From a virus, in the IMG/VR virus record IMGVR_UViG_3300033490_000001: a stretch of 64,000 nt of DNA; one strand, 5' to 3'. Each line of letters opens with the position of its first letter. Within the stretch, counting starts at the first letter, position 1. Below, piece after piece: positions 1 to 46,952 of the stretch. The notes below the pieces were generated by a model. That model was not told the origin of the DNA and ran no database searches. It saw nothing but the letters and a program-made list of their open reading frames with translations. The position numbers and the translations under genes were made by a program.

Positions 1-4
1 TGTA

Positions 5-24809: not shown

Positions 24810-25073
24810 TCACGACATCTCTGTAAGACGAATCCACTCACGGACATCTCTTGCGATTCGCCAACGCAGTGGTGTTCTCTCAGGATACAGCAACGAAGCA
24901 GTAATCACGAACGGAAGCAGAAGGATTCGGAGACTCCAACTCACGGTGCGCTCAGCAAAGTGCATAACGCAAATCGTCGCAAACAGCGAGAATGCTGCAA
25001 TGCCTCCGACAGTAATAGCCGCGATTTCACGCAGCCGCACGATCTTTTTTCGCATTTCGACCACCTCCTGCAA
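24810..25073 (-). CDS. Small membrane protein
   Basis: Two hydrophobic segments. Confidence 0.55.
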   Translation of the reverse strand: MQEVVEMRKKIVRLREIAAITVGGIAAFSLFATICVMHFAERTVSWSLRILLLPFVITASLLYPERTPLRWRIARDVREWIRLTEMS

Positions 25074-25083
25074 GAATTTCCCT

Positions 25084-25365
25084 TCATCGCTCCTTCATCG
25101 AACGAAACGTCTCAGGAAGTCGGTCTGGCGATGTGTAGGCGAGCCAGAACCGAACTTCCCAGCGAATCCGTTGCCAAAGCGACATCGGTAAAGGACTGAT
25201 GACCGCCGCCAAAACGATGAGCGGAACGAGAAAGTAGCGGGCAAGGTGAATAAAGAACAGGCATAGACCTCCCGAAAGAGCTACGATGCAGGCAAGTAAA
25301 ACGCCTGCAATCGCAGCGAGTAAATTCGACATGGCTTCCCTGACATTCGCAAAGAATTCACGCAC
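25084..25365 (-). CDS. Small membrane protein
   Basis: Two hydrophobic segments; layout similar to 24810-25073. Confidence 0.55.
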   Translation of the reverse strand: MREFFANVREAMSNLLAAIAGVLLACIVALSGGLCLFFIHLARYFLVPLIVLAAVISPLPMSLWQRIRWEVRFWLAYTSPDRLPETFRSMKER

Positions 25366-25592
25366 TACCGCCCACCTCCGAGAACTTTTTGAAGGTAGCG
25401 GTAGTGCTCCCAGAACAATTGGGAACGGAACCGGAGATAGTTCGGATGAAACGGCATCGTCTCTTTGAGGACATACCGAATTGACCTGACAACCGCTTCT
25501 TCTAGCGTGATTCCAACTTCCATCGCCATCTCTTCTAACGCCTGTGCTTCTGGTTCGCTGAGACGAATAGTTACTTCGCGCATCATAATCAC
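25365..25592 (-). CDS. Ribbon-helix-helix (CopG-like) DNA-binding protein
   Basis: REVTIRLSEPEAQALEEMAMEVGITLEEAVVRSIRY. Confidence 0.7.
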   Translation of the reverse strand: MIMMREVTIRLSEPEAQALEEMAMEVGITLEEAVVRSIRYVLKETMPFHPNYLRFRSQLFWEHYRYLQKVLGGGR

Positions 25593-25670
25593 CTCCGCGT
25601 TAAAATTTTAAGACGCGTGCGTAATATTCGCACGCGTCTAAATCCGCTACAAAGGACGGTGAAAAACGAG

Positions 25671-25931
25671 ATGCTTCCGTTGAATCTCATCCTAGACCTA
25701 GCGAAGATGTGGGTAGAAAGTCAGACTATCGAGAAGCTTCGCGAATACGCTTCTGATCCTAGGCCCGACATCCAATTCGACATGCCCATCGTCGGCGCGA
25801 AAGTCGACATCTGGATTCGGGATGTCGACAAGCCGCCGACGATGGCTCCGAAGGCGAAAAAAGCGATGAGAGTCGCTGTCGGAGATGTGCCGTTCTGGCT
25901 TTACTACCAACTAACCAGACCGAAGAAATGA
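25671..25931 (+). CDS. Hypothetical protein (lone + strand ORF in the early region)
   Basis: AAGGA-like RBS then ATG at 25671; reads more protein-like than the overlapping - strand ORF. Confidence 0.45.
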   Translation: MLPLNLILDLAKMWVESQTIEKLREYASDPRPDIQFDMPIVGAKVDIWIRDVDKPPTMAPKAKKAMRVAVGDVPFWLYYQLTRPKK

Positions 25932-25977
25932 GCGAACCGACAGCGGTTCGAACGCTGTCAGCCCGCTCAAGAATTCG

Positions 25978-26208
25978 TCACAATCGCAGAACTTGTCGGA
26001 ACAGGTCAGCGATTTGAGAAGGTTCGGTGTTCAAACTGAATGTGACAGAAGCAACCTCGAACCAATTTCCGCGATCGGCGATAATAACGGTAACTGAATC
26101 TTCCTCTATCGGACCAATCTTGGAGACATAACGGGAGACGAATTCTTCACCCAGCAGCGATTCGGCTTCGTTCAGAATGTGGTTGACTTTCTTGAGAGTT
26201 TCCCACAT
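25978..26208 (-). CDS. Hypothetical early-region protein
   Basis: GGAGGTGA RBS. Confidence 0.55.
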   Translation of the reverse strand: MWETLKKVNHILNEAESLLGEEFVSRYVSKIGPIEEDSVTVIIADRGNWFEVASVTFSLNTEPSQIADLFRQVLRL

Positions 26209-26224
26209 AGCATCTCACCTCCGT

Positions 26225-26842
26225 TCAGAGCGTTTGCGGTACGACCAACTCTGCAAGCGATTTCGCTTGCAGAATTTGCCGCAGATCAAAGACTTCGGCT
26301 TCTTTGTCGTCGGCGAATTGCAGAATTTGTTCGCCAACATACTGTTCGAATTCGTCGAAATCGCGATGTCGCCGAGTGACAATTTCGCAGTGAATGAAAA
26401 CATACGCAATATTGACGAGTTTGGCGAATTCTCCAGCAAGTTCGAGTCCGGAGAGTAGACTCATAGATTGTCGGTTCTGGTACGAACTGTAGACGCGATA
26501 GTGCAGCAGTAACTCGTCAAGCAGCGATTGGGTCTTTCGCCGCAGCGCAAGGCTGAGAAAATAGCAGAACTCCCAAACTGCCCAGTTCGCTTCATTTCTG
26601 GCTTCTTCAATGGCATCTTTTAGACCGAGGTGAATTTTCTGGAACGGAGCATCCGAGAACGCCCAAATTGCGCGGAACTCAGCAACTCCTCGGCCGCGCT
26701 TGACCGAAAGAATTACCTTCGTCGCGCCATCTGAGGGCGTGGTCTCAATGAAGTGCCACCGTGCACGAACTTCAAGTTCGACTTCATTGGAAACGATAAT
26801 TCGCTTCCGCACGACTGGACCCTTCGCGAACATAGAAACCAC
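26225..26842 (-). CDS. Hypothetical protein (paralog of 26851-27486)
   Basis: EVRARWH...LELAGEFAKLVNIAYVFIHCEI...FDLRQIL. Confidence 0.7.
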   Translation of the reverse strand: MVSMFAKGPVVRKRIIVSNEVELEVRARWHFIETTPSDGATKVILSVKRGRGVAEFRAIWAFSDAPFQKIHLGLKDAIEEARNEANWAVWEFCYFLSLALRRKTQSLLDELLLHYRVYSSYQNRQSMSLLSGLELAGEFAKLVNIAYVFIHCEIVTRRHRDFDEFEQYVGEQILQFADDKEAEVFDLRQILQAKSLAELVVPQTL

Positions 26843-26850
26843 CTCCTGAT

Positions 26851-27486
26851 TCAGATTTCGCTCATCGCAAGTTCTTTCAGCGTCTTCTTTGATACTTGAG
26901 CGATAATCGGGCGCAGGTCAAGCGTCTTCTCGACACGATCCCATGAGAATTCCGCAAGCCTGCGTCCAACCACGATTTCTACTTCTTCGGCTTTCGCTGA
27001 TTTTACGCAAAGTGCAATTTCGCAATGGATGTGCGCATACGCGATGCGAACGAGCTTGCCAAGCCGGGACGCGAGCTCGAGCGAGGAGAGAACTTCTCGC
27101 GGGTCAGGTCTGTAGAGTCTTACTTCGTAATCAAATCGCGAGAGGAGTTGCTTCGCCATATCTCCAGTTCGGTGCTGAAGACCGAGCCCGAGAATGAGTA
27201 GAAAGATGCCGACGGCGGCATCTGCCGCCATGTCGGCATCTTCCTTCGCTGCCTCGGGAGAGTGTTTCTCTAGAAGAATGGGTGCTTCGTCAATCGAAGC
27301 AACCGCCGACATCGTAATTTGCCTACGAAGTCCCTTATGACGCAGGATTAAAGTAATTCTCGTCTCGCCCGTGTCGTAGTCCTTTTCTCGTATCCTGTGC
27401 CAACGACCTCTCACCTCCATCTGCAAGTTATCGGACACGATAATCGTTCGTTTCGCGATGTTACTTCGAATGACCATAACCATCAC
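26851..27486 (-). CDS. Hypothetical protein (paralog of 26225-26842)
   Basis: EVRGRWH...LELASRLGKLVRIAYAHIHCEI...LDLRPII. Confidence 0.7.
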   Translation of the reverse strand: MMVMVIRSNIAKRTIIVSDNLQMEVRGRWHRIREKDYDTGETRITLILRHKGLRRQITMSAVASIDEAPILLEKHSPEAAKEDADMAADAAVGIFLLILGLGLQHRTGDMAKQLLSRFDYEVRLYRPDPREVLSSLELASRLGKLVRIAYAHIHCEIALCVKSAKAEEVEIVVGRRLAEFSWDRVEKTLDLRPIIAQVSKKTLKELAMSEI

Positions 27487-27552
27487 CTCCGAAGAATTTC
27501 ACAATCGGCGCGGTTCTCTATAAAACACCACGCCGATTCGATCCCGCAAACC

Positions 27553-27595
27553 AAAAAAAGAAGAGAGCGCGAGCCCGACTTGCGGACTCGCGCTC
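27553..27595 (-). terminator. Rho-independent terminator
   Basis: GAGCGCGAG/CTCGCGCTC stem followed by a T-rich tract on the - strand. Confidence 0.75.
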
Positions 27596-27641
27596 GCCAG
27601 CGGGAAAGAGGCGCGGAGAGGGGCGATTACTCGCATTCACA

Positions 27642-28004
27642 TCATCGTTCGGAATATAGTTCGTAGGTCGAATCGTCTACTTCGTCAGAAACCTCGTCGA
27701 AAATGTCGGCGAAGGTGATTAGCCGAAAGCGGATGCGATTTGCAATGAACTCGGCGGCATCTTCTACGACAGCTGACAAGTCTTCCGATTTGGCGATGAA
27801 TTCGCTCTCATAGTCGTCTCGGTAAACTTTGATGTGGATATTTGGGAACGAGTAAGTCGCGACGGTAATTTCGGCCCAGGTATCGTGCCCGTTCGTTACA
27901 GAAGCGATTGCCAGCCACCTATCCGCCTTTATGATCGTTCGCCAAATTAACGGCACTCCGTCAAGTAACTTAAGAAGAATTTCTTTTGCGTTCTGTTCCA
28001 TCAT
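27642..28004 (-). CDS. Hypothetical early-region protein
   Basis: GGAGGTGA RBS. Confidence 0.6.
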   Translation of the reverse strand: MMEQNAKEILLKLLDGVPLIWRTIIKADRWLAIASVTNGHDTWAEITVATYSFPNIHIKVYRDDYESEFIAKSEDLSAVVEDAAEFIANRIRFRLITFADIFDEVSDEVDDSTYELYSER

Positions 28005-28420
28005 CGCTCACCTCCGAGAATTTCTTCAGGCTGAAAATTCGTCACGACCGCAATCCAGCCCGAAGCAATTGCCTTGCCGATATTCTCGAAGTACTTCTGC
28101 AAATCGTGAAGTTCGAACAGTCCGAAGACATTGCCATCGAGAGAATTCACGAACTTCTCGACGAAACAGTTCCTTTCTCGGTCCCAGACAGACCAAGCAA
28201 CCTCGGGATGTCGTAGATGAATGAATCTTACGACTTTACCTGAAAGTAAAGCGTTCATGATTCGTTCCGCTTCGTCCAACGCGGAACGAACGAGAGGTGA
28301 ATCGCCTATGCGCTCGAACGGAAATTCGAAATATTCGATATGCGACGAGCACACAAAGCGAACTTCCTCTGGAGCATGCACAAGAAATAGTGCTTCGTTT
28401 TCGCACAAATCACACCTCAT
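28001..28420 (-). CDS. Cys/His-finger protein (paralog of 28410-28901)
   Basis: CDLCENEALFLV...FVCSSH...SPLVRSAL...LLSGKVVRF. Confidence 0.6.
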   Translation of the reverse strand: MRCDLCENEALFLVHAPEEVRFVCSSHIEYFEFPFERIGDSPLVRSALDEAERIMNALLSGKVVRFIHLRHPEVAWSVWDRERNCFVEKFVNSLDGNVFGLFELHDLQKYFENIGKAIASGWIAVVTNFQPEEILGGER

Positions 28421-28901
28421 CGTTCATCACCTCCTGATGGAGATTCTTCACGAATCGCCGCAAATCCGCCTCGTCGGAAACTCTACCTTCCAAAATCTCG
28501 ATCTGCCAGCCATTCACAAGTAACCGCACGAGCGATTGTTCATATCGTTCTAGTGTCAGATAAAGCGGACTGATAAATCGCTTCGCAGCTGGCGAATATC
28601 CAATGTCGCACACCCTTTCACCATCCATCGTCGGCACGAGTGCCGCATAGAACTCCCACTCGTCATACGGCGCACGCGGATTCGTTATCCGCAAAATTCG
28701 CCCATCACGAAGAGATTTCGCAATGGATACAGCAGCCTTCGTCGCGTCCCTTATCAACGCCGATTGCGAAATCGGCACGACATAGGAAGGAGAAAAGTTC
28801 TCGACATGTTTTTCGCAACTGAAGCGCCATCGCTGCCCTTCTCGGACAAGATACTTCGCCTCGTCGCGATGGTCCCAATCGCAAATGAATTTCTCCATCA
28901 T
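28410..28901 (-). CDS. Cys/His-finger protein (paralog of 28001-28420)
   Basis: CDWDHRDEAKYLV...FSCEKH...SALIRDAT...LRDGRILRI. Confidence 0.6.
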   Translation of the reverse strand: MMEKFICDWDHRDEAKYLVREGQRWRFSCEKHVENFSPSYVVPISQSALIRDATKAAVSIAKSLRDGRILRITNPRAPYDEWEFYAALVPTMDGERVCDIGYSPAAKRFISPLYLTLERYEQSLVRLLVNGWQIEILEGRVSDEADLRRFVKNLHQEVMNDEV

Positions 28902-28924
28902 AATCACCTCCATCGTAGAAATTT

Positions 28925-28977
28925 CCGCATCGCGAGAATTTTGCGCGATGCGGTCTCAATCCCACAATGGTGCGATT
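28925..28977 (-). promoter_or_regulatory. Repeated early leader element, copy 1 (19-bp motif + hairpin + RBS)
   Basis: On - strand: AATCGCACCATTGTGGGAT, then a CCGCATCGCG/CGCGATGCGG hairpin, then GGAGGTG. Confidence 0.65.
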
Positions 28978-28982
28978 GCGAG

Positions 28983-29039
28983 AAAAAAAAGAAGAGAGCG
29001 CCGACAGCGCCCGTCGCTCTCTAAGACGCCATCGGCGCT
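28983..29039 (-). terminator. Terminator with alternative pairing
   Basis: AGAGAGCG/CGCTCTCT or AGCGCCGA/TCGGCGCT stems before T8 on the - strand. Confidence 0.7.
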
Positions 29040-29049
29040 TCCTTCGCGA

Positions 29050-29328
29050 TTAGTGTTCGTCGCAGTCACACCTAGTAAGAACAACGACCAGTCTGTGGTT
29101 CTCGGCAATCTTGACCGCTCCTGGATAGTTCGTTACTTGGTCAACTTCGCGAGCTGGACGAATTCGGAACTTGCCAACCTGCATCCGATACTCTTCTACG
29201 GTTCGGATGAATTCGCGTTCCGCAACTCTTTTCGGCAGCGGTCTGCTCTCACGAATTGGATACGCTTTGTCTTCGTGAACGCAGAAAACATCAACATGAA
29301 AGTGATACCGCTTCACTTCTTCCATCAT
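29050..29328 (-). CDS. Hypothetical early-region protein
   Basis: GGAGGTGG RBS. Confidence 0.6.
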   Translation of the reverse strand: MMEEVKRYHFHVDVFCVHEDKAYPIRESRPLPKRVAEREFIRTVEEYRMQVGKFRIRPAREVDQVTNYPGAVKIAENHRLVVVLTRCDCDEH

Positions 29329-29354
29329 ATTCTCCCACCTCCATTAAAGAATTC

Positions 29355-29406
29355 GCGCACCGCGCCCATTCTGCGAACGCGGTGCGCATCCCACATTGGT
29401 GCGATT
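29355..29406 (-). promoter_or_regulatory. Repeated early leader element, copy 2
   Basis: AATCGCACCAATGTGGGAT (18/19 identical to copy 1) plus a GCGCACCGCG/CGCGGTGCGC hairpin. Confidence 0.65.
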
Positions 29407-29458
29407 GCAGAACGAGCGGGCGCCAGCCTCTCAACGAAACCAGCGCCCGCTGAGTTCT

Positions 29459-29746
29459 CTAAGCATCCCGATGTCGCTTGAAGAAGTCTTTAGGTCTGCC
29501 TAATTCGGAAGACCAGCCAACTTCTATCATCTCAGCGATGTCGTCCTCAGTGATGACATTCTCGTAGATGAGAATCCACAGACCGTTCTCCATCCGCTCA
29601 AAGAGACGGTAGCGAATTTTCCCGCCCACCATCTTCGCAACACCTTTTCTTTCGGGAATTTTCACGCTGCGAAAAACGATGACTCGCCCTTCCTTCAAAA
29701 GCTCGAGAGCTCGCGTCCATCGCTGATACTGCCACTCAGTTAACAT
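29459..29746 (-). CDS. Hypothetical early-region protein
   Basis: RALELLKEGRVIVF; GGAGGTGA RBS. Confidence 0.6.
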   Translation of the reverse strand: MLTEWQYQRWTRALELLKEGRVIVFRSVKIPERKGVAKMVGGKIRYRLFERMENGLWILIYENVITEDDIAEMIEVGWSSELGRPKDFFKRHRDA

Positions 29747-29825
29747 CTCTCCTCACCTCCATCAGAATTTTTCGCACGGCTTTTAAATCCTCTCAAAATC
29801 CTCCATTCGCAACCCTTTGCGAACA

Positions 29826-29873
29826 AAAGAAAAAGAGCGCGACGGGCGAACCTTCTCTCAAAGCCCGTCGCGC
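29826..29873 (-). terminator. Rho-independent terminator
   Basis: 11-bp stem GCGCGACGGGC/GCCCGTCGCGC plus a T-rich tail on the - strand. Confidence 0.8.
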
Positions 29874-29883
29874 CCGAATCGCT

Positions 29884-30162
29884 TCAGAGATAGCGCTTCG
29901 CAATCTCAAGCGCTCCTTCGACGCCAAGACATTTCGCAGGGTCCTTTCTCGCGAACAAATCGCAACGAATCAAGACATCGCCATCGTAAACGCGAACGCG
30001 AATTCGTTGGACAGTGTTATTGCCAACTTCGTCCAGCGAATCTAACACCGTAGAAATGCGAACACTTCGCGTTCCCTTCGTCACCAAGTAATTGTCGCCA
30101 GAATACTCACGAATCTCAATGTCGCCAATGCGATAAATCCAACACCCATCACCGCGAACCAT
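29884..30162 (-). CDS. Hypothetical early-region protein
   Basis: GGAGGTGA RBS before ATG at 30162. Confidence 0.55.
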   Translation of the reverse strand: MVRGDGCWIYRIGDIEIREYSGDNYLVTKGTRSVRISTVLDSLDEVGNNTVQRIRVRVYDGDVLIRCDLFARKDPAKCLGVEGALEIAKRYL

Positions 30163-30358
30163 AACTCTCACCTCCATTCGCGAACATTCGCAAACGACGA
30201 ACTTCACGCTTCGCTTCTGCTTGAGAAATTTCCGCACCAAATTCACGCAACACCGCAATGAGAATCCAACCAATGAATTCCGCAAGAATTTCGTTTATCC
30301 GACGAATCACTTCAACTTCGCACAGAACCGCATCCTTCGCTACTTCCACCAACTTCAT
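30149..30358 (-). CDS. Small hypothetical protein
   Basis: GAGGTGA RBS before ATG at 30358. Confidence 0.5.
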   Translation of the reverse strand: MKLVEVAKDAVLCEVEVIRRINEILAEFIGWILIAVLREFGAEISQAEAKREVRRLRMFANGGESYGSR

Positions 30359-30363
30359 CTCTA

Positions 30364-31068
30364 TCACCTCTCCTTTCGTGGCAAGATTTCGTAAGCGTCG
30401 AACCATCGCTCGCCATCGGCAGAAATCTCAACCCTGAGACACCGCAGGCAGAATGGCGGAATGGATTTCACGAGGTCTTTCCAATCACGAATATCCACTT
30501 CGCATTCTTCAACTTCTCCATCTTTCCTGTAAACGCGAAGCATCGCAACCGACGGTCTCTCGCGAAGTAAGTCGGGCGTGAGAGTTACGCCCGACATTCG
30601 CTGAGATGGAAAAGCCAAAACCATCGTGCCTTCTGGACGAGAAACCACAACCGACTTCACTTCGTAACTGCGAACACGAACCGACGGCAATCTCTGAGCC
30701 AGCATCCTCTTCGTGCTCGGTCGACGACGAACAACAGTCTTTCTCAAATCCCAAACTGTCACCTCGTCGCCAGAGCGAACAACCGCAATCGTCTTCGTCC
30801 CACCAACAAATCTCACATCCATTGCGAAATTACCATCTGACCTGTTGAATTCTCTCTCCGCCATCCGCAGAATTTGTTCCCTGCGAAATTGGTCTAGCGT
30901 TTCCGCATCTACGAACTCATGCCTGACCAATTTCGCACGCTTCCGACTTGGAAGCGGCTTTTCGGGAAAGACCCGTCCGAGAATATCATGGATTTTCTCC
31001 TCGGTAAGACCAGCCGCCGATAACTCTTCGGCGAGATACCGCCGAAGAGCGTCCGCCGAGACTTTCAT
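30364..31068 (-). CDS. Hypothetical basic early protein
   Basis: GGAGG RBS before MKVSADAL. Confidence 0.65.
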   Translation of the reverse strand: MKVSADALRRYLAEELSAAGLTEEKIHDILGRVFPEKPLPSRKRAKLVRHEFVDAETLDQFRREQILRMAEREFNRSDGNFAMDVRFVGGTKTIAVVRSGDEVTVWDLRKTVVRRRPSTKRMLAQRLPSVRVRSYEVKSVVVSRPEGTMVLAFPSQRMSGVTLTPDLLRERPSVAMLRVYRKDGEVEECEVDIRDWKDLVKSIPPFCLRCLRVEISADGERWFDAYEILPRKER

Positions 31069-31160
31069 CGCTCTCGCCTCCTTCTCTGAGTTTTCTAATC
31101 TCATCCTTTCGCCGAGAATTCTCGGGCGCGGGCAAATTCACCCGCGCCCGAAGCGAACGC

Positions 31161-31442
31161 TTAGTCGAGAACGCGCCATTCGACGCCAGAACAAAGTAAG
31201 TTACCAATTTTGTGTTCGTCTAATGTCTCTACATTGTCTAAGAGAAGTTCGCCGTTTTCGCCGTTTTCGCCGTTTCTGTAATACAAGATTCTCACCTTAG
31301 GCGGCGATTTCTTCACGAGTGTCATTACTTCGCGATACTCCAAATTCAGATACTTCTTTCGGATGATGAATTCAATCGTTTTCCCTGCGTCCAACAACTT
31401 CAGAATTTGTTCGCGCTCCAAGACATACTGCGGATACGCCAT
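31161..31442 (-). CDS. Hypothetical early protein with NGE x3 repeat
   Basis: GGAGGG RBS; QILKLLDAGKTIEF resembles 29459-29746. Confidence 0.55.
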   Translation of the reverse strand: MAYPQYVLEREQILKLLDAGKTIEFIIRKKYLNLEYREVMTLVKKSPPKVRILYYRNGENGENGELLLDNVETLDEHKIGNLLCSGVEWRVLD

Positions 31443-31471
31443 CGCAATCCCTCCTTCGCACAAGATTTCTC

Positions 31472-31533
31472 CATCGCGGCGCAACTTGAGAAAAAACTCT
31501 CATCGCGCCGCGATATCCCACAATGGTGCGATT
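31472..31533 (-). promoter_or_regulatory. Repeated early leader element, copy 3
   Basis: AATCGCACCATTGTGGGAT identical to copy 1, followed by an ATCGCGGCGC/GCGCCGCGAT hairpin. Confidence 0.65.
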
Positions 31534-31559
31534 TCTGATTTCTTTTCTCAAGTTTCTTT

Positions 31560-32292
31560 TTCTTGGCTTGGACTTGGACTTGGACTTTTTTTTGGGCTTT
31601 GGGCTTTTGGGCTTTGACTTGGGCTTTGGGCTTTTGGGCTTTGGGCTTGGGCTTGACCTTTTGGGCTTTGGGCTTGGGCTTGGACTGGCTCACTTGGGAC
31701 TTGGGACTTTGGACTTGGCTTTGGGCTTGACTTGACCTTTGGGCTTGACTTTGGACTTGGGCTTTGGGCTTTTGACTTGACCTTTTTGGCTTTTGGGTTT
31801 TGGCTTGGCTTGACTTGGGCTTTGAACTTGGCTTGGCTTTAAATCAAACTTGGCTTGGGCTTGACTTGGCTTTTTTGTGGCTTGGGCTTGACTGGCTGGC
31901 TTGGCTTTGCCAGCCAGATAGGCTTTGGCTTGACTTTGACTTTGGCTTTGGGCTTTGTGGCTTGACTTTGGGCTTAACTGGCTCACTTGGCTTGGGCTTT
32001 TGACTTGACTTTGGGCTTGGGCTTTTGTGGCTTGGGCTTTGACTTGACTTGGCTTTGGGCTTGGCTTTTTGGCTTTGACTTGGCTTTGTAAGCCAAGCGA
32101 CCTACAAAGCCCAAATTGTCAATTTGCTTTGGCTTTGACTTTGACTTTTTTTGGCTTTTGACTTGGCTTGGCTTTTGACTTTGGCTTGGCTTTAGAACTT
32201 GGCTTTGAAAAATGCTTTGGCATAAACTTTTGAAAAAAAAGCCCAAGCCCAAACTTTGGGCTTGGGCTTGGCTTTGGGCTTGGCTTTGGCTT
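31560..32292. repeat. Low-complexity array of TTGGGC/TTGGCT/TTGACT/TTGGAC-type units (telomere-like, G4-capable)
   Basis: About 730 bp; + strand nearly devoid of A and CpG; many GGG tracts spaced by 3-5 nt. Confidence 0.95.
32233..32267 (-). terminator. Terminator built from the repeat vocabulary
   Basis: GCCCAAGCCCAAA-C-TTTGGGCTTGGGC perfect inverted repeat adjacent to A8 on + (T8 on -). Confidence 0.7.
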
Positions 32293-32848
32293 AGTCAAGT
32301 TTAGCCGCTGGCGCATTCTCGGGCTTCCTTGTGTTCCATGCCTGTGCCAAAGCCACAACTTCCGCATCCAACTTTGCCTGCGGGCTTGACCGCACAATCC
32401 TTGTCAAGATTGTCCCTACATACCACGAAAGTTTGGCTTTCTCATAATCCTTGACTTGGACTCCATACCGAGAAGCCAAGTCAAGGACCTTCGCCCATTC
32501 TGACCTTGACTTGGCTTCCGCCTGGGCTTGGGCTTGGGCTTGGACTGGCTCTTGGACTTGTGGCAAGTCAACCTGCCCTTCCACCCTAATTTGCCCATAC
32601 CTGCCATGACTTGCGTCCAATTGCCAAGTCCAACCCACTAAATTGCCCTCCTCGTCCTCCTTGATGGCAACTTGGACTTGGACTTGACTAAAGCCATCCT
32701 GCCATCCACCCAAAGCCAAAATTTGCCTAACAAATTGTGCAACCTGCGACTGAAGTGTAGCCTTCAACTCCGACCGCCTGATGACTTCCTCAATTTGCGC
32801 CTCACTAAGCCCTAAACTTTGCAACTCACCCTTCAACACTTCCAACAT
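32291..32848 (-). CDS. Hypothetical protein, first gene of the leftward early unit
   Basis: AAAGGAGGT RBS; 185 aa; codon usage strongly skewed to CAA/GTC/GCC/AAG. Confidence 0.8.
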   Translation of the reverse strand: MLEVLKGELQSLGLSEAQIEEVIRRSELKATLQSQVAQFVRQILALGGWQDGFSQVQVQVAIKEDEEGNLVGWTWQLDASHGRYGQIRVEGQVDLPQVQEPVQAQAQAQAEAKSRSEWAKVLDLASRYGVQVKDYEKAKLSWYVGTILTRIVRSSPQAKLDAEVVALAQAWNTRKPENAPAAKLD

Positions 32849-32987
32849 TTTGACCGACCTCCTTTACACTTAGAATTTCTGGCGCTCTATCTTAGCGCCG
32901 TTAACATTTTGCCCTATCCCAACGCCGATGCAACAGCCTCTGTAACCGCTTAGCGCACCTTTCTTTTCAGATTGCACGAAAGTGCTG

Positions 32988-33015
32988 TTTACTTTCGCTG
33001 AGAATCGGCTATAAT
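32988..33015 (+). promoter_or_regulatory. sigma70-type promoter of the GNAT-TGT operon
   Basis: TTTACT-16 nt-TATAAT, with CGGC immediately before the -10 box. Confidence 0.7.
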
Positions 33016-33079
33016 TTACTTTCGAGTAGCAAGCAAGCTTGTTCGGAAGCGTCGTTCCGAATTGGAGTGATATGAACCT

Positions 33080-33499
33080 ATGCGGTTCATTCGTGTCAAT
33101 GAAGCGATTGACAAGTATGGTGTAGATAGAAAGATTTTGTTGGCGTTAAAGCGGTTGGGATTTGTGGTGTTTCACGGGTTCAAGTATGTTGATGAAGAAG
33201 GTTTATCGCTGATTGTTGAGAATGAAGCGATAATGAGTGCAATTAGAGAAGTTTTAGAAAGTAAGCCTTATGTTTACTATGACCCAAAGCGGTTTCGTTC
33301 GCTTTTCAAGAAAGCGATGCTAAGGCGTGAAGGTTTGGTAGGGACAGGTGAGTTAGCGCGGATGTTTGGGCGAAGTTTCCAATGGGCGAACAACATAGCG
33401 CGTCGGAAGCTAAATTCCGTGAAGATTGGCAAAAGGCGGTTCATCAAGGTCGATGAAGTGTTCTTTGATTTCGTTGACAAGGAGATGATGAAACGGTGA
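33080..33499 (+). CDS. Tandem HTH (excisionase/MerR-like) regulator
   Basis: IRVNEAIDKYGVDRKIL and VGTGELARMFGRSFQWANN...SVKIGKRRFI. Confidence 0.7.
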   Translation: MRFIRVNEAIDKYGVDRKILLALKRLGFVVFHGFKYVDEEGLSLIVENEAIMSAIREVLESKPYVYYDPKRFRSLFKKAMLRREGLVGTGELARMFGRSFQWANNIARRKLNSVKIGKRRFIKVDEVFFDFVDKEMMKR

Positions 33500-33927
33500 A
33501 TGTTTTAGCTCGGATGGCTGAGATGGGTGATCTTGGCGAGATCAAGGAGATTGCTGATGAGTTTCGTGACGAACTTGGGTTTGTGTATGAAGCTGAGCTT
33601 GTTCGTGGCGTTCAGGATCGTAGTGTGATTGTTGCTGAAGTTGACGGAAAAGTTGTCGGGTTCAATTATTTTCGTTGCCGAAAGGACAGGAAAGCGGTGA
33701 TTTACGCTATTGCGGTAACTTCACAGTTTCAGCGGCGCGGGATAGGAAGGCTGTTGCTTAGGAAGTTCATTGATATTGCGCGACAGCGTGGGTGCGTGGA
33801 AGTTGAACTCAAGTGTCCTGCGATGCTGCTTGGTGCGAACATGTTTTACAAGCGCTGTGGTTTCAAGTTCTGTGGCATTGTAGATGGCAAGAAGCAGAAG
33901 CTTGTAATTTGGAAGCTCGTGATTTGA
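33496..33927 (+). CDS. GNAT-family N-acetyltransferase
   Basis: VVGF, IYAIAVTSQFQRRGIGRLLL (motif A), ANMFYKRCGF; GTGA-coupled to the HTH gene. Confidence 0.92.
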   Translation: MNVLARMAEMGDLGEIKEIADEFRDELGFVYEAELVRGVQDRSVIVAEVDGKVVGFNYFRCRKDRKAVIYAIAVTSQFQRRGIGRLLLRKFIDIARQRGCVEVELKCPAMLLGANMFYKRCGFKFCGIVDGKKQKLVIWKLVI

Positions 33928-33934
33928 TTGGCAA

Positions 33935-34912
33935 GTGATAGTTATGAAGTTCTACAATGGTTCATTCGACCATTTAAAGCGAGTATTTGTGCTGATGGGC
34001 AAGCTTGTGGAAGGTTATGGTGGCAAGGTTGAGGTCAATCCGTTTGAGAACATGATTGTTGCTCCGTTGTTTTATTACAGACCTATCTTGGAATTTTATC
34101 GGTGTTGGCGGTTTGGAGAGATTGGTTTGCCGCTGAGGTTAAGTTCTGTAATCATGGACAGTGGTGGCTATCAAGTGCAGACCGGCAAGATAAGTTTTGG
34201 TGCGTTGCAGGTTAGGTTGAGACGGATTTGGTTAGAGAACGATTGGGCCGATTTTTATGTTTTGCCAGACCATGTGCCGAAGACTTCAGATTTAGACTTT
34301 GAAGTCGAACGCAAGGTCAAGGACACGCTTGAAGCTGGCGAACGGTTCTTGAAATTTCTGCCCAAAGGTAAGGTTGCTATAGGTGTTGTTCATGGCAGGA
34401 ACTTGCTTCAGGTTCTCGGTTGTGTGCGCAGGTGGCAGAGGCTTGGTGTCAGGTATGTTGCGTTTGGAAGTTTTGGAACTTCCGGACCGTATGGCGGTGC
34501 GAATGTGATTTCGCAGCGTTCGTTGAAGCTTTTGAAAGCAGTTCACGATGAAGCGAGATCGTTTGGCATGGACTTACATGTATTCGGGATAAGTTACCCG
34601 TCTTATGTTCGGCTGATAGTTGAGAACGGAATTAACCCGACCTCGGTAGATAGCGTTGGCTGGTGGAAGGCTGCTCAGTATAAGCAAGTATTTTTTGATG
34701 GAGCGCCGCAACGGTGCATTTTCACGGCGCGAACTATTCAAAAGAGGGTGCTTAGTATTGATGAAATTGAATCCGAAAAGGCTAGAGTAGGGCACAGCTG
34801 TCCATTTTGCGCTCGTGCTGAGATGCTTGCTGACAAGTTCAACTTGGCGTTGCACAACTTGATTGTGACGGTTGACACAATCTCCAATCTGTGCTATGAT
34901 AGACGCGAATGA
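33935..34912 (+). CDS. tRNA-guanine transglycosylase-fold enzyme, DpdA-like candidate DNA 7-deazaguanine inserter
   Basis: IMDSGGYQ, LPDHVP, GVVHG, AFGSFG, LHVFG, VDSVGW (nucleophile Asp), HSCPFC...LHNL Zn site. Confidence 0.85.
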   Translation: MIVMKFYNGSFDHLKRVFVLMGKLVEGYGGKVEVNPFENMIVAPLFYYRPILEFYRCWRFGEIGLPLRLSSVIMDSGGYQVQTGKISFGALQVRLRRIWLENDWADFYVLPDHVPKTSDLDFEVERKVKDTLEAGERFLKFLPKGKVAIGVVHGRNLLQVLGCVRRWQRLGVRYVAFGSFGTSGPYGGANVISQRSLKLLKAVHDEARSFGMDLHVFGISYPSYVRLIVENGINPTSVDSVGWWKAAQYKQVFFDGAPQRCIFTARTIQKRVLSIDEIESEKARVGHSCPFCARAEMLADKFNLALHNLIVTVDTISNLCYDRRE

Positions 34913-34930
34913 AACTTAAAAGGAGTGTGA

Positions 34931-35695
34931 TTGGCGATGGAGATCAAAGTAGATGAGCGGTTGAAGGGTTTACTTGAGCCGTTGCAAGGTGAAGAGCTTG
35001 ATGTGCTTGTAGAAGACATTTCCAAGCGTGGCATTCAGAACCCGATAATTGTTGACCAGAACGGTTACATCATTGATGGGCACACGCGCTATCAGATCGC
35101 TCAGATTCTCGGCATCGAGAACATTCCAATCAAGCAAATTGAAGTTTCCGATGAGGACGAACGGCTTGAGCGGGCATTAGCGTTGAACTTGCAACGCAGA
35201 AAGCAAGTTCCGACAAAGCGTTTGAAAGAACTTGCGCTTGAGCTTCATTCTCGTGGCTGGGATGTAGATAGGATCGCGCGGGCGTTATCGGTTCGGAAAG
35301 AGACAGTAAAGCACTGGATCAATCCAGTTCCGCCAAAAGACGAGCCTCCCGAAGTCAAAGGTTTGATGCAGTATTGGGCTATTGGGTTTTTGGTGAAGAT
35401 TCAGGGCTGGCTTGTTGGTGCTGAGAACTCGTTTGTGCTGATAGACAGGCGTTCTGACATGGTTGTAGTTTGGTTCACCCGTGGTGAGCGAAGTTTTGAA
35501 ATTGAAGTTCGGCAAGTTGGGCGTGACGAATATGTGGTTCAAGAGTGGCTTGTGGGATCTGAGGGCGTTCGTGAGATGAAGGTTGCTGAATTTACTGGCA
35601 CGATGAACAAGTCGATTGCTTTCATGCTCAGCAGGTTGAACCTTCCATTTGTTGACCTTGACGAAATTACGCAAGCAAGTTCGGTTGCAGGTTGA
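34931..35695 (+). CDS. ParB/Srx-like N-terminal domain protein with HTH
   Basis: LLEPLQGEELDVLVEDI...GIQNPIIVD...IIDGHTRY; WDVDRIARALSVRKETV. Confidence 0.85.
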   Translation: MAMEIKVDERLKGLLEPLQGEELDVLVEDISKRGIQNPIIVDQNGYIIDGHTRYQIAQILGIENIPIKQIEVSDEDERLERALALNLQRRKQVPTKRLKELALELHSRGWDVDRIARALSVRKETVKHWINPVPPKDEPPEVKGLMQYWAIGFLVKIQGWLVGAENSFVLIDRRSDMVVVWFTRGERSFEIEVRQVGRDEYVVQEWLVGSEGVREMKVAEFTGTMNKSIAFMLSRLNLPFVDLDEITQASSVAG

Positions 35696-42990: not shown

Positions 42991-45336
42991 TTGCCGTTAG
43001 CGCCTATCATTTTCGATTATGTTATATCAAAGAAAATGGACAGGCTTGGTGGGTTTACCGGTGTCGGAGATTTCTCGTTAATGAAACCGATGAAGATTGG
43101 AGGTATGTTAGTTTATCCGAAAGCTGAACTTGCGCGACCCATCTTGCCTACAAACCAATCTGTTCGCTGCGAATTCCAAACTGGCTTTGTGCGTTATCGA
43201 TTCGATCAATCTTTGGGAGCCACTTTAGAATTCGTCCCAAACGCTTCGGGACAGATGTTTTTCGACTTTCGCGTCGGTATCAAGTCCTCATTTTTCACCA
43301 TCAGAGGCAATATTGTCCAGATAGCTTCAGGTGACTCTCTTGTAGTTTCGTTCTATCCAAGAGGGCTGCCAAATCAGGCAGCTTACTCTCAAACTATATC
43401 GTCTACTGGCAATTTCGCTGTAACTTGGTCTCCGGTAGCTGATGGAAATCGTGAGTGGATGTTACGCATAACGGCAATCTTCAATCAATCATCTATTCCA
43501 ATTGTCATCAATGGTCTAAGCATTGAGCGCGATAGATTAGATTACCCTCAACGGGAAGGGATGGTGTGGCAAGGAGTCTGGCTTGGAAGAGTTGAAGATG
43601 CCGGTGTCCTGCCACTTGGGCGAATTTGGTCGGACTGTGAAGGCGGATATGCTGCCAATCGGTTCTATGTCAGCCCGCCAGCCTACGATACCTTAGATTT
43701 CGTTCCGAGAAGATCGGGTCGTGTATTCTGTGATTTCCAGTGCGGTCTCACCAATTTAGCCATTGTCGTTAGAGGAAACATCACTCGAATGGCAGCTGGC
43801 GATAGCATAACAGTGCAGTTTTATCCAAGAGGCTTACCCGATCAGATTGCGTTCTCACAAAACATAAGTTCTACCGGAGAATTTCAAGTTATCTGGACGC
43901 CACCTCGTAGAGGAGAATGGATTGTGAGAGTAGCGGCGAACCTCAATCAAACTGAGTTGCCAATAACAATTACAAATTTCAGAGTTGAACGAGCGACAGG
44001 AGTAGGGACTGGTGGCGGAGGCGGTGTAAGTATCCAAGTAAGCGATCAGATGAGCATCATGTCATCAGAAACAATCTTGGCTCAGTTGTCTTTAAATCAA
44101 GTCGAACATGGAATGATTTCAGGAGCTGAACAAGTTAATCCGAATGTGCTTATGACCGTTGGTGATACAGAAACTCTGCAATCTATTGATTCTGCGATTG
44201 CACAGTTCAGCTTGCTTCCGTCAGAGTTAGCGCAAATCATTGCAAGCGAGGCAGTTCAGCCATCGTTGCAAGCTTCTGTCTCCGAAGTCATGCAGGCTTC
44301 AGTGCAAGATACAGTCCTCTCACAATTACTTGCGTCTCCATCAGAGACCGTCAGAGTTTCGACTTCTGAGTCTGTCATCTCGAGCATTTCTGTAGCAGCT
44401 ACAGACGCGACGCAGGTTCGAACTGATGAATCACAAGTCGTGCAGGTTAGCGTTGGCATTTCGGAAAGTTTGCGAATTTCAACGGCTGAGCAAGCAACTC
44501 CGGTTATCTCGTTTGCATTAGCTGAAAGCCAACAAGTTCTCGCAAGCGAAGGCGTCAATGTCTTTACAGGATTCCAACTACTCGTCAGCGATTCAATGCA
44601 AGTGGCTACATCCGAATCGCAGAGCACGAACATCGCTGCTCAGATCGTCCAACAAGAAGCGATTCAGACTGCCGAAGCACCGACTACTCAGCTTGGCGTT
44701 TCTGTCGCAGACTCAGCAAGCATTTTATCCGCTGAGTCTATTATCCCTACGCTGCAACCGCGTGTTTCAGAAACCGTCCAAGTCCTTGCGTCAGAATCTC
44801 AGTCTGTCGGCATCGCAATCAACTTCACGCAACAAGAAAATGTGAGAGCCTCAGAAACTCCGGTAACTCAGATCGGAATTGTTGTCTCAGACCAAGCGAT
44901 AGCGTCAGCAAGCGAAGTAATTGCGCCAACGATTGTCCCACAAGTATCAGAAACGACGCGCATCAGCGCGTCTGAGCAAACACCTGTCGCAATGCAAATT
45001 GCAGCAGCGACTACAGCGCAAATTAGGGCAACAGAGTCGGTGTTACCGTCAATTCAAGTTGCTGCATCAGATGTTGGCGAAATTGTAGTCTCTGAGGAAA
45101 GTTCTGCTCAGATCGCCAGCTCAATTAGTGAAACGATCCGAATTATAACCACAGAGCAGCCCACCACTCAAGTTCAGTTCAGTGCAGTTGAGTCTGTCAC
45201 GCAGATTGAAGCAGAAATTGCGCCGTTCGTCGGTCTTATCCAGCGACTGATGATCCCAGTGTCAGTTGATCTTCTCAAAGCCGTTGAATTGTCGATTTCC
45301 ATCACGCAAGTGAGTTTAGATCTCGGAATAGATTGA
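42991..45336 (+). CDS. Fibre-like protein: two duplicated beta-sandwich domains, Gly linker and ~20 copies of a 20-aa repeat
   Basis: FYPRGLPxQ...SSTGxFxVxW duplicated; GTGGGGG linker; 20-residue periodicity with acidic residues at positions 7 and 15. Confidence 0.7.
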   Translation: MPLAPIIFDYVISKKMDRLGGFTGVGDFSLMKPMKIGGMLVYPKAELARPILPTNQSVRCEFQTGFVRYRFDQSLGATLEFVPNASGQMFFDFRVGIKSSFFTIRGNIVQIASGDSLVVSFYPRGLPNQAAYSQTISSTGNFAVTWSPVADGNREWMLRITAIFNQSSIPIVINGLSIERDRLDYPQREGMVWQGVWLGRVEDAGVLPLGRIWSDCEGGYAANRFYVSPPAYDTLDFVPRRSGRVFCDFQCGLTNLAIVVRGNITRMAAGDSITVQFYPRGLPDQIAFSQNISSTGEFQVIWTPPRRGEWIVRVAANLNQTELPITITNFRVERATGVGTGGGGGVSIQVSDQMSIMSSETILAQLSLNQVEHGMISGAEQVNPNVLMTVGDTETLQSIDSAIAQFSLLPSELAQIIASEAVQPSLQASVSEVMQASVQDTVLSQLLASPSETVRVSTSESVISSISVAATDATQVRTDESQVVQVSVGISESLRISTAEQATPVISFALAESQQVLASEGVNVFTGFQLLVSDSMQVATSESQSTNIAAQIVQQEAIQTAEAPTTQLGVSVADSASILSAESIIPTLQPRVSETVQVLASESQSVGIAINFTQQENVRASETPVTQIGIVVSDQAIASASEVIAPTIVPQVSETTRISASEQTPVAMQIAAATTAQIRATESVLPSIQVAASDVGEIVVSEESSAQIASSISETIRIITTEQPTTQVQFSAVESVTQIEAEIAPFVGLIQRLMIPVSVDLLKAVELSISITQVSLDLGID

Positions 45337-46952
45337 TGCGAAGGAGTGAGACATGGATGTCATGGCAGCCAGATTTGGAATTTCTGGAATTCCTGAAGAG
45401 CTTCAAACTGCCAAAAGGTAGACCGTTTGTTTTCAAGCCACACCTTCTCGCTCTCTACGCTTACCCACTTCGGCAACGCAAATTTCTTGCGATTCAGAAG
45501 GCATCGCAGCTTGGAATTTCGACATACGCAATTGCGCGAGCGATTTTCGAGTGCATTCATCGCAAGCTCGATGTCATGTATGTTCTGTCATCGTGGCCTG
45601 TTGTCAAGAAGTTCGTTCTGAGCAAAATTGATCCGATATTGTCTGCGATGGGCATTCAGCCCAATCCAGATAGCATAGACACAAAGGGTGTAATCAATGG
45701 GATTATTCACTTCACTGGCGGTCAAAAGGTCACGCAAGCAATCTCAATCACTGCTGACTTTCTAATTCTCGACGAATTTTCGTTTTTAGACCCGACAACG
45801 CGGGATACGTTCGAAGACAGGCTATTGGCATCTGATGAAGGCATGATCCTACAGCTTTCTATTCCGTCAGGAACTGAGAGTGGCATCGAAGCTGTTGTGG
45901 CTGCAACCAAATTGTTTATCTGGCACGTTCAGTGTCGGTCATGCAAGCGAATAGTTCCACTTGATCCGAGGGAATATGAGCGGCTTATTACTCTCGATGA
46001 CAGCGGGAAACAGTGGATTTTCAGGTGCTTAGTTTGCGGCAATCCTCTCGATCCCAATGACCCAAATGCTGTACAGGTTAGGACATCAGGCTTTTACGCT
46101 GCCATGAACCCTGAAGCTGAACGAGATGGTTTTCTGATCTCGACTGTCTATGATCCGGAACGAACCGCTGAATGGTTCAAGCAAATTGAGCAAAAACGCG
46201 ATGCAAGTAGGTTCTATCCGGGTGTCATCGGAATTCCGTATGTTATCTCGATGCGAATCGCATTTTCTGATCTACTTAACCTTGTGCTGCCAGATTCTGA
46301 ATGGAATGAACCCAAATTTGTGCCTATCGTTGCTGGAGTCGACTACGGTAAACTATTCCACATCGCTTACCTAACGCTGACCGATCCGCCTCAAGTGGTT
46401 CGACTATCCGTCGCTGCCGACTGGCAACAAGCTCTCGATGAACTTTCGATCTTTAGACCTGTTTTGACGCTCATAGACGAGCTTCCACCAGGCGACAATT
46501 ACTTGTTACGGGACGAACTTTCGGCAAGAGGTGCTGATGCAAGGCTTGCTCTCGCTAGAGCGCCACACAACATATCTGGCGACTTTCACGTAGACAGAAG
46601 GCGAGTAGTTTACAACAATGTCCAAGCTTTCAACATGCTATTTGGCGCAATCCAAAGCGGTCAGGTTCGGTTCCTTCGAAGCAGGCGGCTTGAAGAATTA
46701 TTTGTGCACATCCTTCGCGCACGGAGAGCAATTGCGTCATTGAAAGGGCGATACTACCACACTTGGGTTATCGGCGAAACTGCTCACTTTCTTGATGCCC
46801 TTAAGATGGCTTGGATAGCGAAACTCATAGCATCTACGAGCCCGAACGCTAACCAGCCGGTAATCAGAGACAGCGATGGAGAGCATTTCGATCGCACAAT
46901 GACTGAAGATGAGTTCATAGAACGAGTGTTGCAATCGCTTGGAATCGGATAG
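45333..46952 (+). CDS. Terminase large subunit (GpA-like)
   Basis: IQKASQLGISTY (Walker A-like), LILDEF, WHVQCRSC...CLVC Zn ribbon, VAGVDYG, HFLDALKMA nuclease motifs. Confidence 0.85.
   Translation: MMRRSETWMSWQPDLEFLEFLKSFKLPKGRPFVFKPHLLALYAYPLRQRKFLAIQKASQLGISTYAIARAIFECIHRKLDVMYVLSSWPVVKKFVLSKIDPILSAMGIQPNPDSIDTKGVINGIIHFTGGQKVTQAISITADFLILDEFSFLDPTTRDTFEDRLLASDEGMILQLSIPSGTESGIEAVVAATKLFIWHVQCRSCKRIVPLDPREYERLITLDDSGKQWIFRCLVCGNPLDPNDPNAVQVRTSGFYAAMNPEAERDGFLISTVYDPERTAEWFKQIEQKRDASRFYPGVIGIPYVISMRIAFSDLLNLVLPDSEWNEPKFVPIVAGVDYGKLFHIAYLTLTDPPQVVRLSVAADWQQALDELSIFRPVLTLIDELPPGDNYLLRDELSARGADARLALARAPHNISGDFHVDRRRVVYNNVQAFNMLFGAIQSGQVRFLRSRRLEELFVHILRARRAIASLKGRYYHTWVIGETAHFLDALKMAWIAKLIASTSPNANQPVIRDSDGEHFDRTMTEDEFIERVLQSLGIG

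Follow-up and report, generated by a model that had tools for sequence, protein, structure and literature searches.

Graded, one-sided loss of GATC and TCGA in the early-gene module of an uncultured phage

The DNA analyzed here is a 64,000-nt window of a viral genome (IMG/VR record IMGVR_UViG_3300033490_000001), and all coordinates are positions in this whole window. It contains an interval of approximately 5 kb from which the tetranucleotide GATC is absent. Because of the gene order around it, this interval can be identified as the early module at a point of divergent transcription (Table 1). On the minus strand, from 32848 down to approximately 3900, nine to ten small open reading frames (ORFs) without a known family are followed by genes for a primase, a Sak4-like protein, a DnaB-like helicase and an SNF2-type helicase. 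The order on the plus strand, from 33080 onwards, is a basic 139-amino acid (aa) protein, GNAT, a DpdA-like TGT, a ParB-N/helix-turn-helix (HTH) protein, the terminase, an SU10-type capsid protein, the tail tube and a 2458-aa tape measure protein. No phage RNA polymerase was seen, nor any tail sheath beside the tail tube. Most of the early ORFs have their own leader, a GGAGG ribosome-binding site and terminator hairpins; a scan for sigma-70 promoters and terminators gave no enrichment over shuffled sequences. The ORFs of the zone had no PHROG, Pfam or protein-atlas match. For the conserved 234-aa early protein, the AlphaFold model had a pLDDT of 69 and a pTM of 0.31, and Foldseek returned no PDB match at E ≤ 0.001. 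No strongly acidic candidate for a DNA mimic was found in the core zone.

Table 1. Coordinates of the GATC-free interval, its shoulder and the genes and elements discussed in the text.
Feature	Position	Strand	Remarks
GATC-free interval	28504-33528		Also 0 CCGG, ACGT, GTAC and GGCC; TCGA about 1/4 of expectation
Depletion shoulder	25000-28503		GATC 0.26-0.57 and TCGA about 0.7-0.9 of expectation; bulk values regained about 7.5 kb from the divergence point
Divergent intergenic region	32849-33079		Start of the leftward early genes and of the rightward HTH-GNAT-TGT-ParB operon; cumulative GC-skew minimum here
First leftward early ORF, 185 aa	32291-32848	-	No known family; strong terminator hairpin 3' at 32239-32269
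Low-complexity array	31560-32290		CTTGG, CTTTGGG and CTTGA units; almost A-free on the plus strand; GATC-type words impossible
Seven small early ORFs	28410-31442	-	31161-31442, 30364-31068, 30149-30358, 29884-30162, 29459-29746, 29050-29328, 28410-28901; no known family
CRISPR-repeat-like unit 1	31509-31538	-	Early-gene leader; core matches the hairpin part of the host-family repeat
CRISPR-repeat-like unit 2	29382-29411	-	Early-gene leader
CRISPR-repeat-like unit 3	28953-28982	-	26/30 positions of the G010 repeat, including the TTGAGAC handle
First rightward gene, 139 aa, basic	33080-33499	+	Without GATC; GATC resumes 30 bp past its end
GNAT acetyltransferase, DpdA-like TGT (33935-34912) and ParB-N/HTH (34937-35695)	33496-35695	+	Normal GATC density; candidate modifiers of the bulk DNA
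Large terminase	45333-46952	+	Only cultured relatives SPO1-, K- and A511-type (Herelleviridae), 24-27% identity
Ligase fused to D12-class (Dam-type) adenine methylase domain	51202-54588	+	Candidate protector of bulk GATC
C-terminal part of 709-aa gamma-class N6-adenine methylase	2-577	+	N6_Mtase/Eco57I Pfam families; second phage methylase

Gap statistics, base-composition and Markov models and codon shuffles were computed from the window sequence. The window holds 250 GATC sites, i.e., one per 256 bp, which is exactly the random rate. The sites flanking the interval lie at 28500-28503 and 33529-33532 and leave a gap of 5029 bp, while the second-largest gap in the window measures 1291 bp. The probability of a 5029-bp gap among 250 is approximately 7 × 10−7, and approximately 1.3 × 10−5 with the 730-bp low-complexity array removed. 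Whether the expectation is taken from base composition, from Markov models of order 1 or 2 or from the remainder of the window, 19-21 GATC sites should lie in the interval, where none was observed. A preliminary description of this DNA had reported the gap by eye; it had placed the last GATC before the gap, which is indeed present, one base off, and the coordinates of the next site reproduce exactly. Its counts elsewhere also hold, with nine GATC sites in the last 2 kb, 19-20 at 21-25 kb and a thinning over 25-28.5 kb. The computational scan found no GATC in the gap that the first reading had missed, the depletion stands in sliding-window and codon-aware palindrome counts, and composition and codon bias leave the gap unexplained.

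Other words have gaps in the same region. The CCGG gap noticed earlier at about 27.1-34.1 kb is real and extends over 27064-34182, and further gaps are found for TCGA (31180-33022), CGCG (31509-33357) and AGCT (29708-33036). The reported absence of the latter three from 31.5-33.0 kb is therefore correct as to the gaps themselves, but their joint lack is largely due to the A-poor array; the AGCT and CGCG gaps are mostly a by-product of this array and of local composition. In the sliding profile, the total of 4-bp palindromes falls to 0.45-0.55 of expectation at 28-33 kb, compared with 0.65-0.88 elsewhere.

Under an order-2 local model with the array excluded, GATC (0 observed, 21.3 expected) and TCGA (9 observed, 36.6 expected), each with z = -4.6, were the two most depleted among the 136 strand-symmetric tetramer classes, and both are palindromes. 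Over the different models, 30-37 TCGA sites were expected in the zone against the nine present, while in the bulk of the genome both words reach 0.8-1.0 of expectation. We then permuted synonymous codons among the nine genes of the zone 3000 times, keeping proteins and codon usage. GATC was observed once (the boundary site at 28500) against 12.5 expected, with no shuffle as low (P < 1/3000), CCGG not at all against 9.5 (P < 1/3000) and TCGA nine times against 19 (P = 0.003). In this test, the GATC ratio was 0.57 in the genes at 24-28.4 kb; it was higher in the replication genes (0.76) and highest in the right arm (0.92). The depletion of AGCT was not significant in either the codon shuffle (5 versus 8.4) or the local order-2 model (7 versus 10.7), in the latter case because the triplets AGC and GCT are locally rarer; a shortage is visible only against a dinucleotide model (7 versus 16.4) or the bulk rate (7 versus 20.7).

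The words are avoided through the choice of synonymous codons according to their neighbors. In the early genes, the isoleucine codon ATC is never used after codons ending in G (0/22, compared with 15/43 elsewhere, P = 7 × 10−4), the aspartate codon GAT never before codons starting with C (0/6 versus 27/55), the arginine codon CGA only once after codons ending in T (1/43 versus 19/77, P = 8 × 10−4) and the serine codon TCG never before codons starting with A (0/8 versus 18/48). This codon-context bias recurs in five relatives. GAATTC, which served as a negative control, is enriched both in the zone and genome-wide. We conclude that the loss of GATC and TCGA reflects selection on DNA words, exerted via context-dependent synonymous choice, and not composition. 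Avoidance of endoribonuclease sites at the RNA level was set aside, since the two top-ranked words are DNA palindromes.

As a separate observation, GAATTC occurs 55 times in the 64 kb, compared with approximately 16 expected by length alone. Its density is 1.6-2.3 per kb in the early region (25000-33528) and 0.7 per kb elsewhere, and it is often found in leaders just 5' of the ribosome-binding site.

The depletion is one-sided and graded, and it fades over approximately 7.5 kb of the early arm only. In successive 2.5-kb bins from the divergence point into the early arm, the observed-to-expected ratio of GATC was 0.00, 0.07, 0.43 and 0.76, followed by bulk fluctuation, and that of TCGA was 0.24, 0.39, 0.49 and 0.72. 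In the opposite (right) arm, GATC was already at 0.72 in the first bin. This shape bears on the idea that the zone is a replication origin, replicated earlier and more often than the rest and before the late methylases are made, so that unmethylated daughter molecules would be selected to lack sites. A graded depletion would suit an origin, as would the minimum of the cumulative GC skew at approximately 32-33 kb, the conserved repeat array adjoining the divergence point and the location of the D12 methylase in the late head module. However, the change of skew cannot be separated at all from the change of coding strand, bidirectional replication predicts a two-sided trough although the right side recovers at once, and losing one replicating copy is a weak force compared with losing the single incoming genome. 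We therefore consider an origin a very improbable cause of the gap.

The full contig of the phage is 80.9 kb long, and an identical 72-kb contig exists in another assembly. Megablast found no close DNA relatives among cultured phages, and IMG/VR scans with the TGT and with the terminase gave no match. Relatives, including an 83.9-kb genome, were traced through proteins homologous to the TGT and to the conserved early protein of 234 aa. The early module is their most diverged part, with a patchy nucleotide identity of 70-84% compared with approximately 90% in the adjacent right arm. The early proteins are 36-84% identical among relatives, and some early genes of relatives with depletion reach only 36-59%. 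In six relatives (L007, L009, L010, L011, L012 and L013), the ratio of observed to locally expected sites in the homologous zone is 0-0.4 for GATC and 0.13-0.33 for TCGA (P < 0.01 in every case), while the flanks are at 0.5-0.8. The strength of the depletion varies, from no GATC in 3.3 kb in L010 to eight sites versus 19.7 expected in L013, as would be expected if the pressure depends on the enzymes of local hosts. That these sites are avoided under selection, as the preliminary description had proposed, is borne out by the codon shuffle, the context-dependent codon choice and the conservation in diverged relatives.

A passive origin of the gap, be it composition, codon bias, low complexity or recent import from a phage lineage without GATC, would draw on the 730 bp of array in which the word cannot occur, the purine-rich coding strand, the mosaic and fast-evolving nature of the module and the AGCT shortage, which stems largely from rare triplets. 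Nevertheless, the depletion remains when the array is taken out, under Markov models of every order and in the shuffle, it is produced by context-dependent synonymous choices, and it persists in relatives with early proteins only 36-59% identical while the flanks keep the words. The module also shares the genome-wide purge of GGCC, ACGT and GTAC and has the same G+C content. A passive cause is accordingly the least credible of the explanations considered, and we regard it as extremely unlikely.

The probable hosts are bacteria of the Fervidibacter family (Armatimonadota) from hot springs, an assignment made at the family level; one Fervidibacter species has been cultured. The phage DNA was searched against 20 genomes of this family. 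A 19-nt leader motif of the phage, AATCGCACCATTGTGGGAT, corresponds to the hairpin core of the 30-nt CRISPR repeat of this family and is identical to positions 6-24 of the repeat of genome G010, GCAGCAATCGCACCATTGTGGGATTGAAAC, of which a close variant is present in G011, G013 and G015. There are three such repeat-like units in the phage and three to five in its relatives, all of which carry them, always in sense orientation to the early genes (in L007 at 9451, 11693, 12124 and 13523; in L010 at 8430, 8826, 9353, 10188 and 10653). The motif stands directly 5' of a GC hairpin and GGAGG. It probably acts as an RNA anti-CRISPR, i.e., a decoy for Cas6, or else directs Cas6-dependent processing of the early mRNAs. 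These repeat copies are the best link to the putative host. They would mark the module as anti-defense DNA of the RNA anti-CRISPR kind, which is not anti-restriction in character.

The closest cellular relatives of the TGT are GNAT-TGT fusions of Fervidibacter and other Armatimonadota. The GNAT and TGT genes are separate in the phage (33496-34912), and the cellular homologues are single fusions of 460-560 aa with 40-47% identity. This suggests that the phage genes were copied from a DNA- or RNA-modification system of the host. The phage also encodes, at 2889-3890, a 333-aa protein that the 83.9-kb relative lacks; a homologue with 43% identity is annotated in Fervidibacter sacchari.

Restriction enzyme families were searched by Pfam in the 20 family genomes and in 14 control genomes. 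The RE_TaqI family (TCGA) was found in 10/20 family genomes and 1/14 controls, and the DpnII family (GATC) in 6/20 and 1/14, respectively; in G021, the DpnII-like gene has a D12 methylase 0.8 kb upstream of it. None of the 20 family genomes gave a match to the EcoRI or DpnI families or to the families that cut GGCC or CCGG (HaeIII, NgoPII and HpaII). For HaeIII, NgoPII and DpnI these blanks say little, because no control genome gave a match either.

The word spectrum of the host was compared with those of the phage bulk and the early zone under a dinucleotide model (Table 2). TCGA, AGCT and GATC are purged in the host, kept in the phage bulk and lost only in the early module, the loss being strong for GATC and TCGA and weak for AGCT. 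The whole phage is purged of GGCC (12 sites in 64 kb), ACGT (36) and GTAC (41); CTAG, CCGG and TTAA are partly purged as well. In the DNA of the Fervidibacter family this purge is stronger still. Over 16 palindromes, the rank correlation of the ratios between host and early zone was weak (rho 0.36, P = 0.17), and the match is carried by specific words and not by the whole spectrum. A host enzyme, one of the targets considered in the preliminary description, is a credible one, given that DpnII- and TaqI-family genes are frequent in the probable host family and that its DNA is purged of the same words.

Table 2. Observed-to-expected ratios (dinucleotide model) of palindromic words in host loci (L017-L022 and L043-L050), the phage bulk and the early zone.
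Word	Host	Phage bulk	Early zone
AGCT	0.06	0.99	0.43
TCGA	0.08	0.95	0.25
GGCC	0.08	0.08	0
CTAG	0.08	0.49	0.47
ACGT	0.09	0.18	0
GTAC	0.18	0.42	0
GATC	0.47 overall, 0.1-0.3 in most genomes	0.81	0
CCGG	0.57	0.66	0

Some further elements of the genome deserve mention. The low-complexity array is conserved at 0.7-0.9 kb between the first early ORF and the rest, with the same position in L007 (8612-9465), L012 and L013, and nearly all short contigs of relatives end in or beside it. It may load a protein, serve as an origin or make DNA entry pause like the repeat-rich injection-stop region of T5. At its convergent end, the replication arm carries the 709-aa methylase and a gene of the staphylococcal-nuclease type (242-2371 in L014, upstream of the window, and 2-2437 of the window). 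This methylase resembles BsaXI and Type I M subunits and not M.TaqI, and the D12 domain of the other methylase had no relative in the PDB. GATC is unusually dense upstream of the window, with 15 sites in 1.8 kb. The region of the convergence point at approximately 2.4-3.9 kb is variable between strains, and the contigs of two relatives end there.

The best explanation, to which we give roughly an even chance, is a first-exposed early module in the manner of T5 or T7, presumably leading the genome into the cell, that is under restriction pressure while the bulk of the genome is protected otherwise. The interval would be the early, host-takeover and anti-defense module of an approximately 81-kb virulent phage, probably growing on Fervidibacter-family bacteria. 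Type II enzymes of the host lineage would cut the words in question, and selection on these words has stripped GATC and TCGA from the module, completed the loss of CCGG, ACGT, GTAC and GGCC and weakly lowered AGCT. The bulk keeps GATC, TCGA and AGCT at chance frequency and must therefore be protected in another way, for which the two adenine methylases, the TGT, GNAT and ParB genes and an early-made or co-injected inhibitor or repair kit are candidates. A regional depletion needs a regional difference in exposure, and the early module would meet the host restriction enzymes without the cover of the bulk. Most likely this is because it enters and is transcribed first, either by a first-step transfer as in T5 or by transcription-coupled entry of the T7 type. 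Staged entry would account for a loss that is greatest at the divergence point and weakens over approximately 7.5 kb in the direction in which the early genes are transcribed.

The one-sided gradient, the hypervariable anti-defense content, the small self-contained early units and a terminase akin to those of phages with long terminal repeats all fit first entry. In tblastn searches (E ≤ 10−5), 567 of the 579 cultured-phage matches of the terminase belonged to phages of Staphylococcus, Bacillus, Listeria, Enterococcus and Lactobacillus. The top matches, weak ones, were SPO1-type, covering 62-66% of the protein. Phages of the SPO1-type family have fixed ends and long terminal repeats that hold early genes. 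Contig ends were rejected as a proxy for the genome ends, as the 72-kb ENA contig, which is identical, continues across the zone. The 83.9-kb relative and a 28.2-kb relative end approximately 0.9 kb apart, both in a variable region. The depletion itself, its origin in selection and its conservation are established, as are the link to the host family and the matching enzymes and words of the host; a polar or staged entry, and the way in which the bulk is protected, are inferences.

Several points weigh against a first-exposed module. The assemblies run through the zone, and the contig ends of relatives, which lie in the array or in the variable region approximately 29 kb away, do not coincide. 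The similarity of the terminase, at 24-27% identity, is weak. None of the early proteins resembles a known anti-restriction protein, T5 A1/A2 or T7 Ocr. On the side of the host, 85 spacers from its arrays did not match the phage, with only 14-18-nt matches to phage loci (E of approximately 0.02), and the presumed enzyme specificities follow solely from membership in a Pfam family. Although GGCC is the most avoided word, no family that cuts it turned up in the 20 host genomes, and the presence test therefore has limited power. If the virion DNA is covalently modified at GATC and TCGA, first entry alone would create no local risk, while a general shield like that of T5 would not explain why the bulk avoids GGCC, ACGT and GTAC.

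The pattern has two tiers, GGCC, ACGT and GTAC being avoided everywhere and GATC, TCGA and AGCT in the zone only, which points to a word-specific protection of the bulk. Such a covalent protection is also the core of an explanation that does without staged entry and that we consider possible, albeit unlikely. According to it, the phage modifies the words in its bulk, and the early module, still unmodified or half-modified when it leaves the cell, must lack them. This could come about through a terminal repeat, the second copy of which is made at packaging, or through a ParB-like complex on the array that excludes the modifying enzymes. The two adenine methylases and the TGT/GNAT/ParB-N operon beside the zone would provide the means, GATC and TCGA are the sole 4-bp palindromes that contain GA, the depletion is centered near the array and decays with distance, and the terminase is related only to those of long-terminal-repeat phages. 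On the other hand, hemi-modified DNA usually resists Type II cleavage, and the strongly one-sided profile is atypical of spread from a loading site.

The Dam-type domain and the second adenine methylase could also mean that GATC and TCGA are the words of the phage's own enzymes, removed so that the module stays host-like. The benefit would be that it can be read by an unmodified host RNA polymerase, or hidden from modification-dependent (Type IV) nucleases until the anti-defense genes are expressed. The module does lack exactly those host-avoided words that the bulk tolerates, and it carries other anti-defense features in the form of the CRISPR-repeat decoys. Yet we know of no case in which N6-methyladenine in gene bodies hinders bacterial RNA polymerase, and a Type IV cut would be lethal anywhere, so that a local purge would again require staged entry. 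The DpnI family is absent from the 20 host-family genomes (with no match in the controls either), and CCGG is locally depleted as well, without an obvious phage enzyme for it. We judge a purge of the phage's own motifs to be distinctly unlikely.

A broader and rather doubtful conception, slightly less so than the purge just described, is a genome of two compartments. The early module would be kept outside the DNA marking of the phage, with GATC, TCGA and perhaps AGCT written by the methylases and the GNAT/TGT/ParB proteins, and the bulk would be marked. If true, the phage would possess a stealth leader that is host-like, unmarked and uncuttable and carries Cas6 decoys, followed by an armored body, and the boundary between them could be read from the word statistics of metagenomes.

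The depletion indicates that restriction pressure can act on part of a genome, and it does so in an uncultured phage-host pair from hot springs on the evidence of sequence alone. The word spectrum of the early module matches the spectrum and the enzymes of the host, and such zones could therefore serve three purposes, namely to assign hosts, to predict the first-exposed end of a genome and to infer the specificities that are neutralized by phage methylases or base modifications.

Restriction that depends on the leading part of the genome has precedents. In T5 and BF23, restriction by Type I and Type II systems depends entirely on sites in the first-step-transfer region (PMC10644984). Like the zone described here, this region of T5 and other Tequintavirus members comprises several kb of small early genes in divergent units with a repeat-rich non-coding stretch, and it lacks sites that are common elsewhere. 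Unlike in T5, PHROG and Pfam searches of the zone ORFs found no homologues of the pre-early A1, A2 and dmp, and the terminase is not T5-like. The depletion is graded instead of forming an edged block at an injection stop, the bulk still avoids GGCC, ACGT and GTAC, and both a place in a terminal repeat and a two-step entry are conjectural. The Marinomonas murciaviruses are restricted only via motifs in the first-injected region, which is hypervariable and rich in anti-defense genes; according to the same authors, the first-injection logic fails for headful packaging (PMC12455610). A gradient along early transcription would fit a transcription-coupled entry as in T7 and the murciaviruses. However, the motifs there are of Type I and the podovirus genome is co-directional with its own RNA polymerase, whereas the phage studied here involves 4-bp Type II palindromes, a genome of approximately 81 kb, the long tape measure protein and a module at a divergence point.

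The host-takeover module of SPO1 and other Herelleviridae is similar in its many small early genes, each with a strong leader and terminator, and these phages are the only cultured kin of the terminase. The SPO1 module is reportedly located in the long terminal redundancy. The phage described here differs from SPO1 in its SU10-type capsid, its tail tube without a visible sheath and the low terminase identity of 24-27%. Moreover, SPO1 relies on hydroxymethyluracil and not on local site avoidance. Genome-wide avoidance of short palindromes is seen here too, being shared by the phage bulk and the host for GGCC, ACGT and GTAC. It differs from the avoidance of GATC, TCGA and, weakly, AGCT, which is confined to approximately 5-8 kb of the phage although the host avoids these words throughout.

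Solitary repeat units in viral genomes that act as RNA anti-CRISPRs (Racr) have been described (PMC10651486). As with these, single copies of the host CRISPR repeat are present in sense orientation in early phage transcripts. They differ in that there are three to five copies per genome, each in the leader of a protein-coding early gene, and in that most keep only the hairpin part. In its behavior, the GATC-free zone comes closest to the first-step-transfer DNA of T5 and the leading DNA of T7-type phages. The principle of local site avoidance is already known, and the phage is not a member of the T5 or T7 families, with which it shares no early genes and from which it differs in terminase and morphology. 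New here are the uncultured thermophilic phage-host pair, the 4-bp Type II words, the graded profile and the match to the word spectrum of the host.

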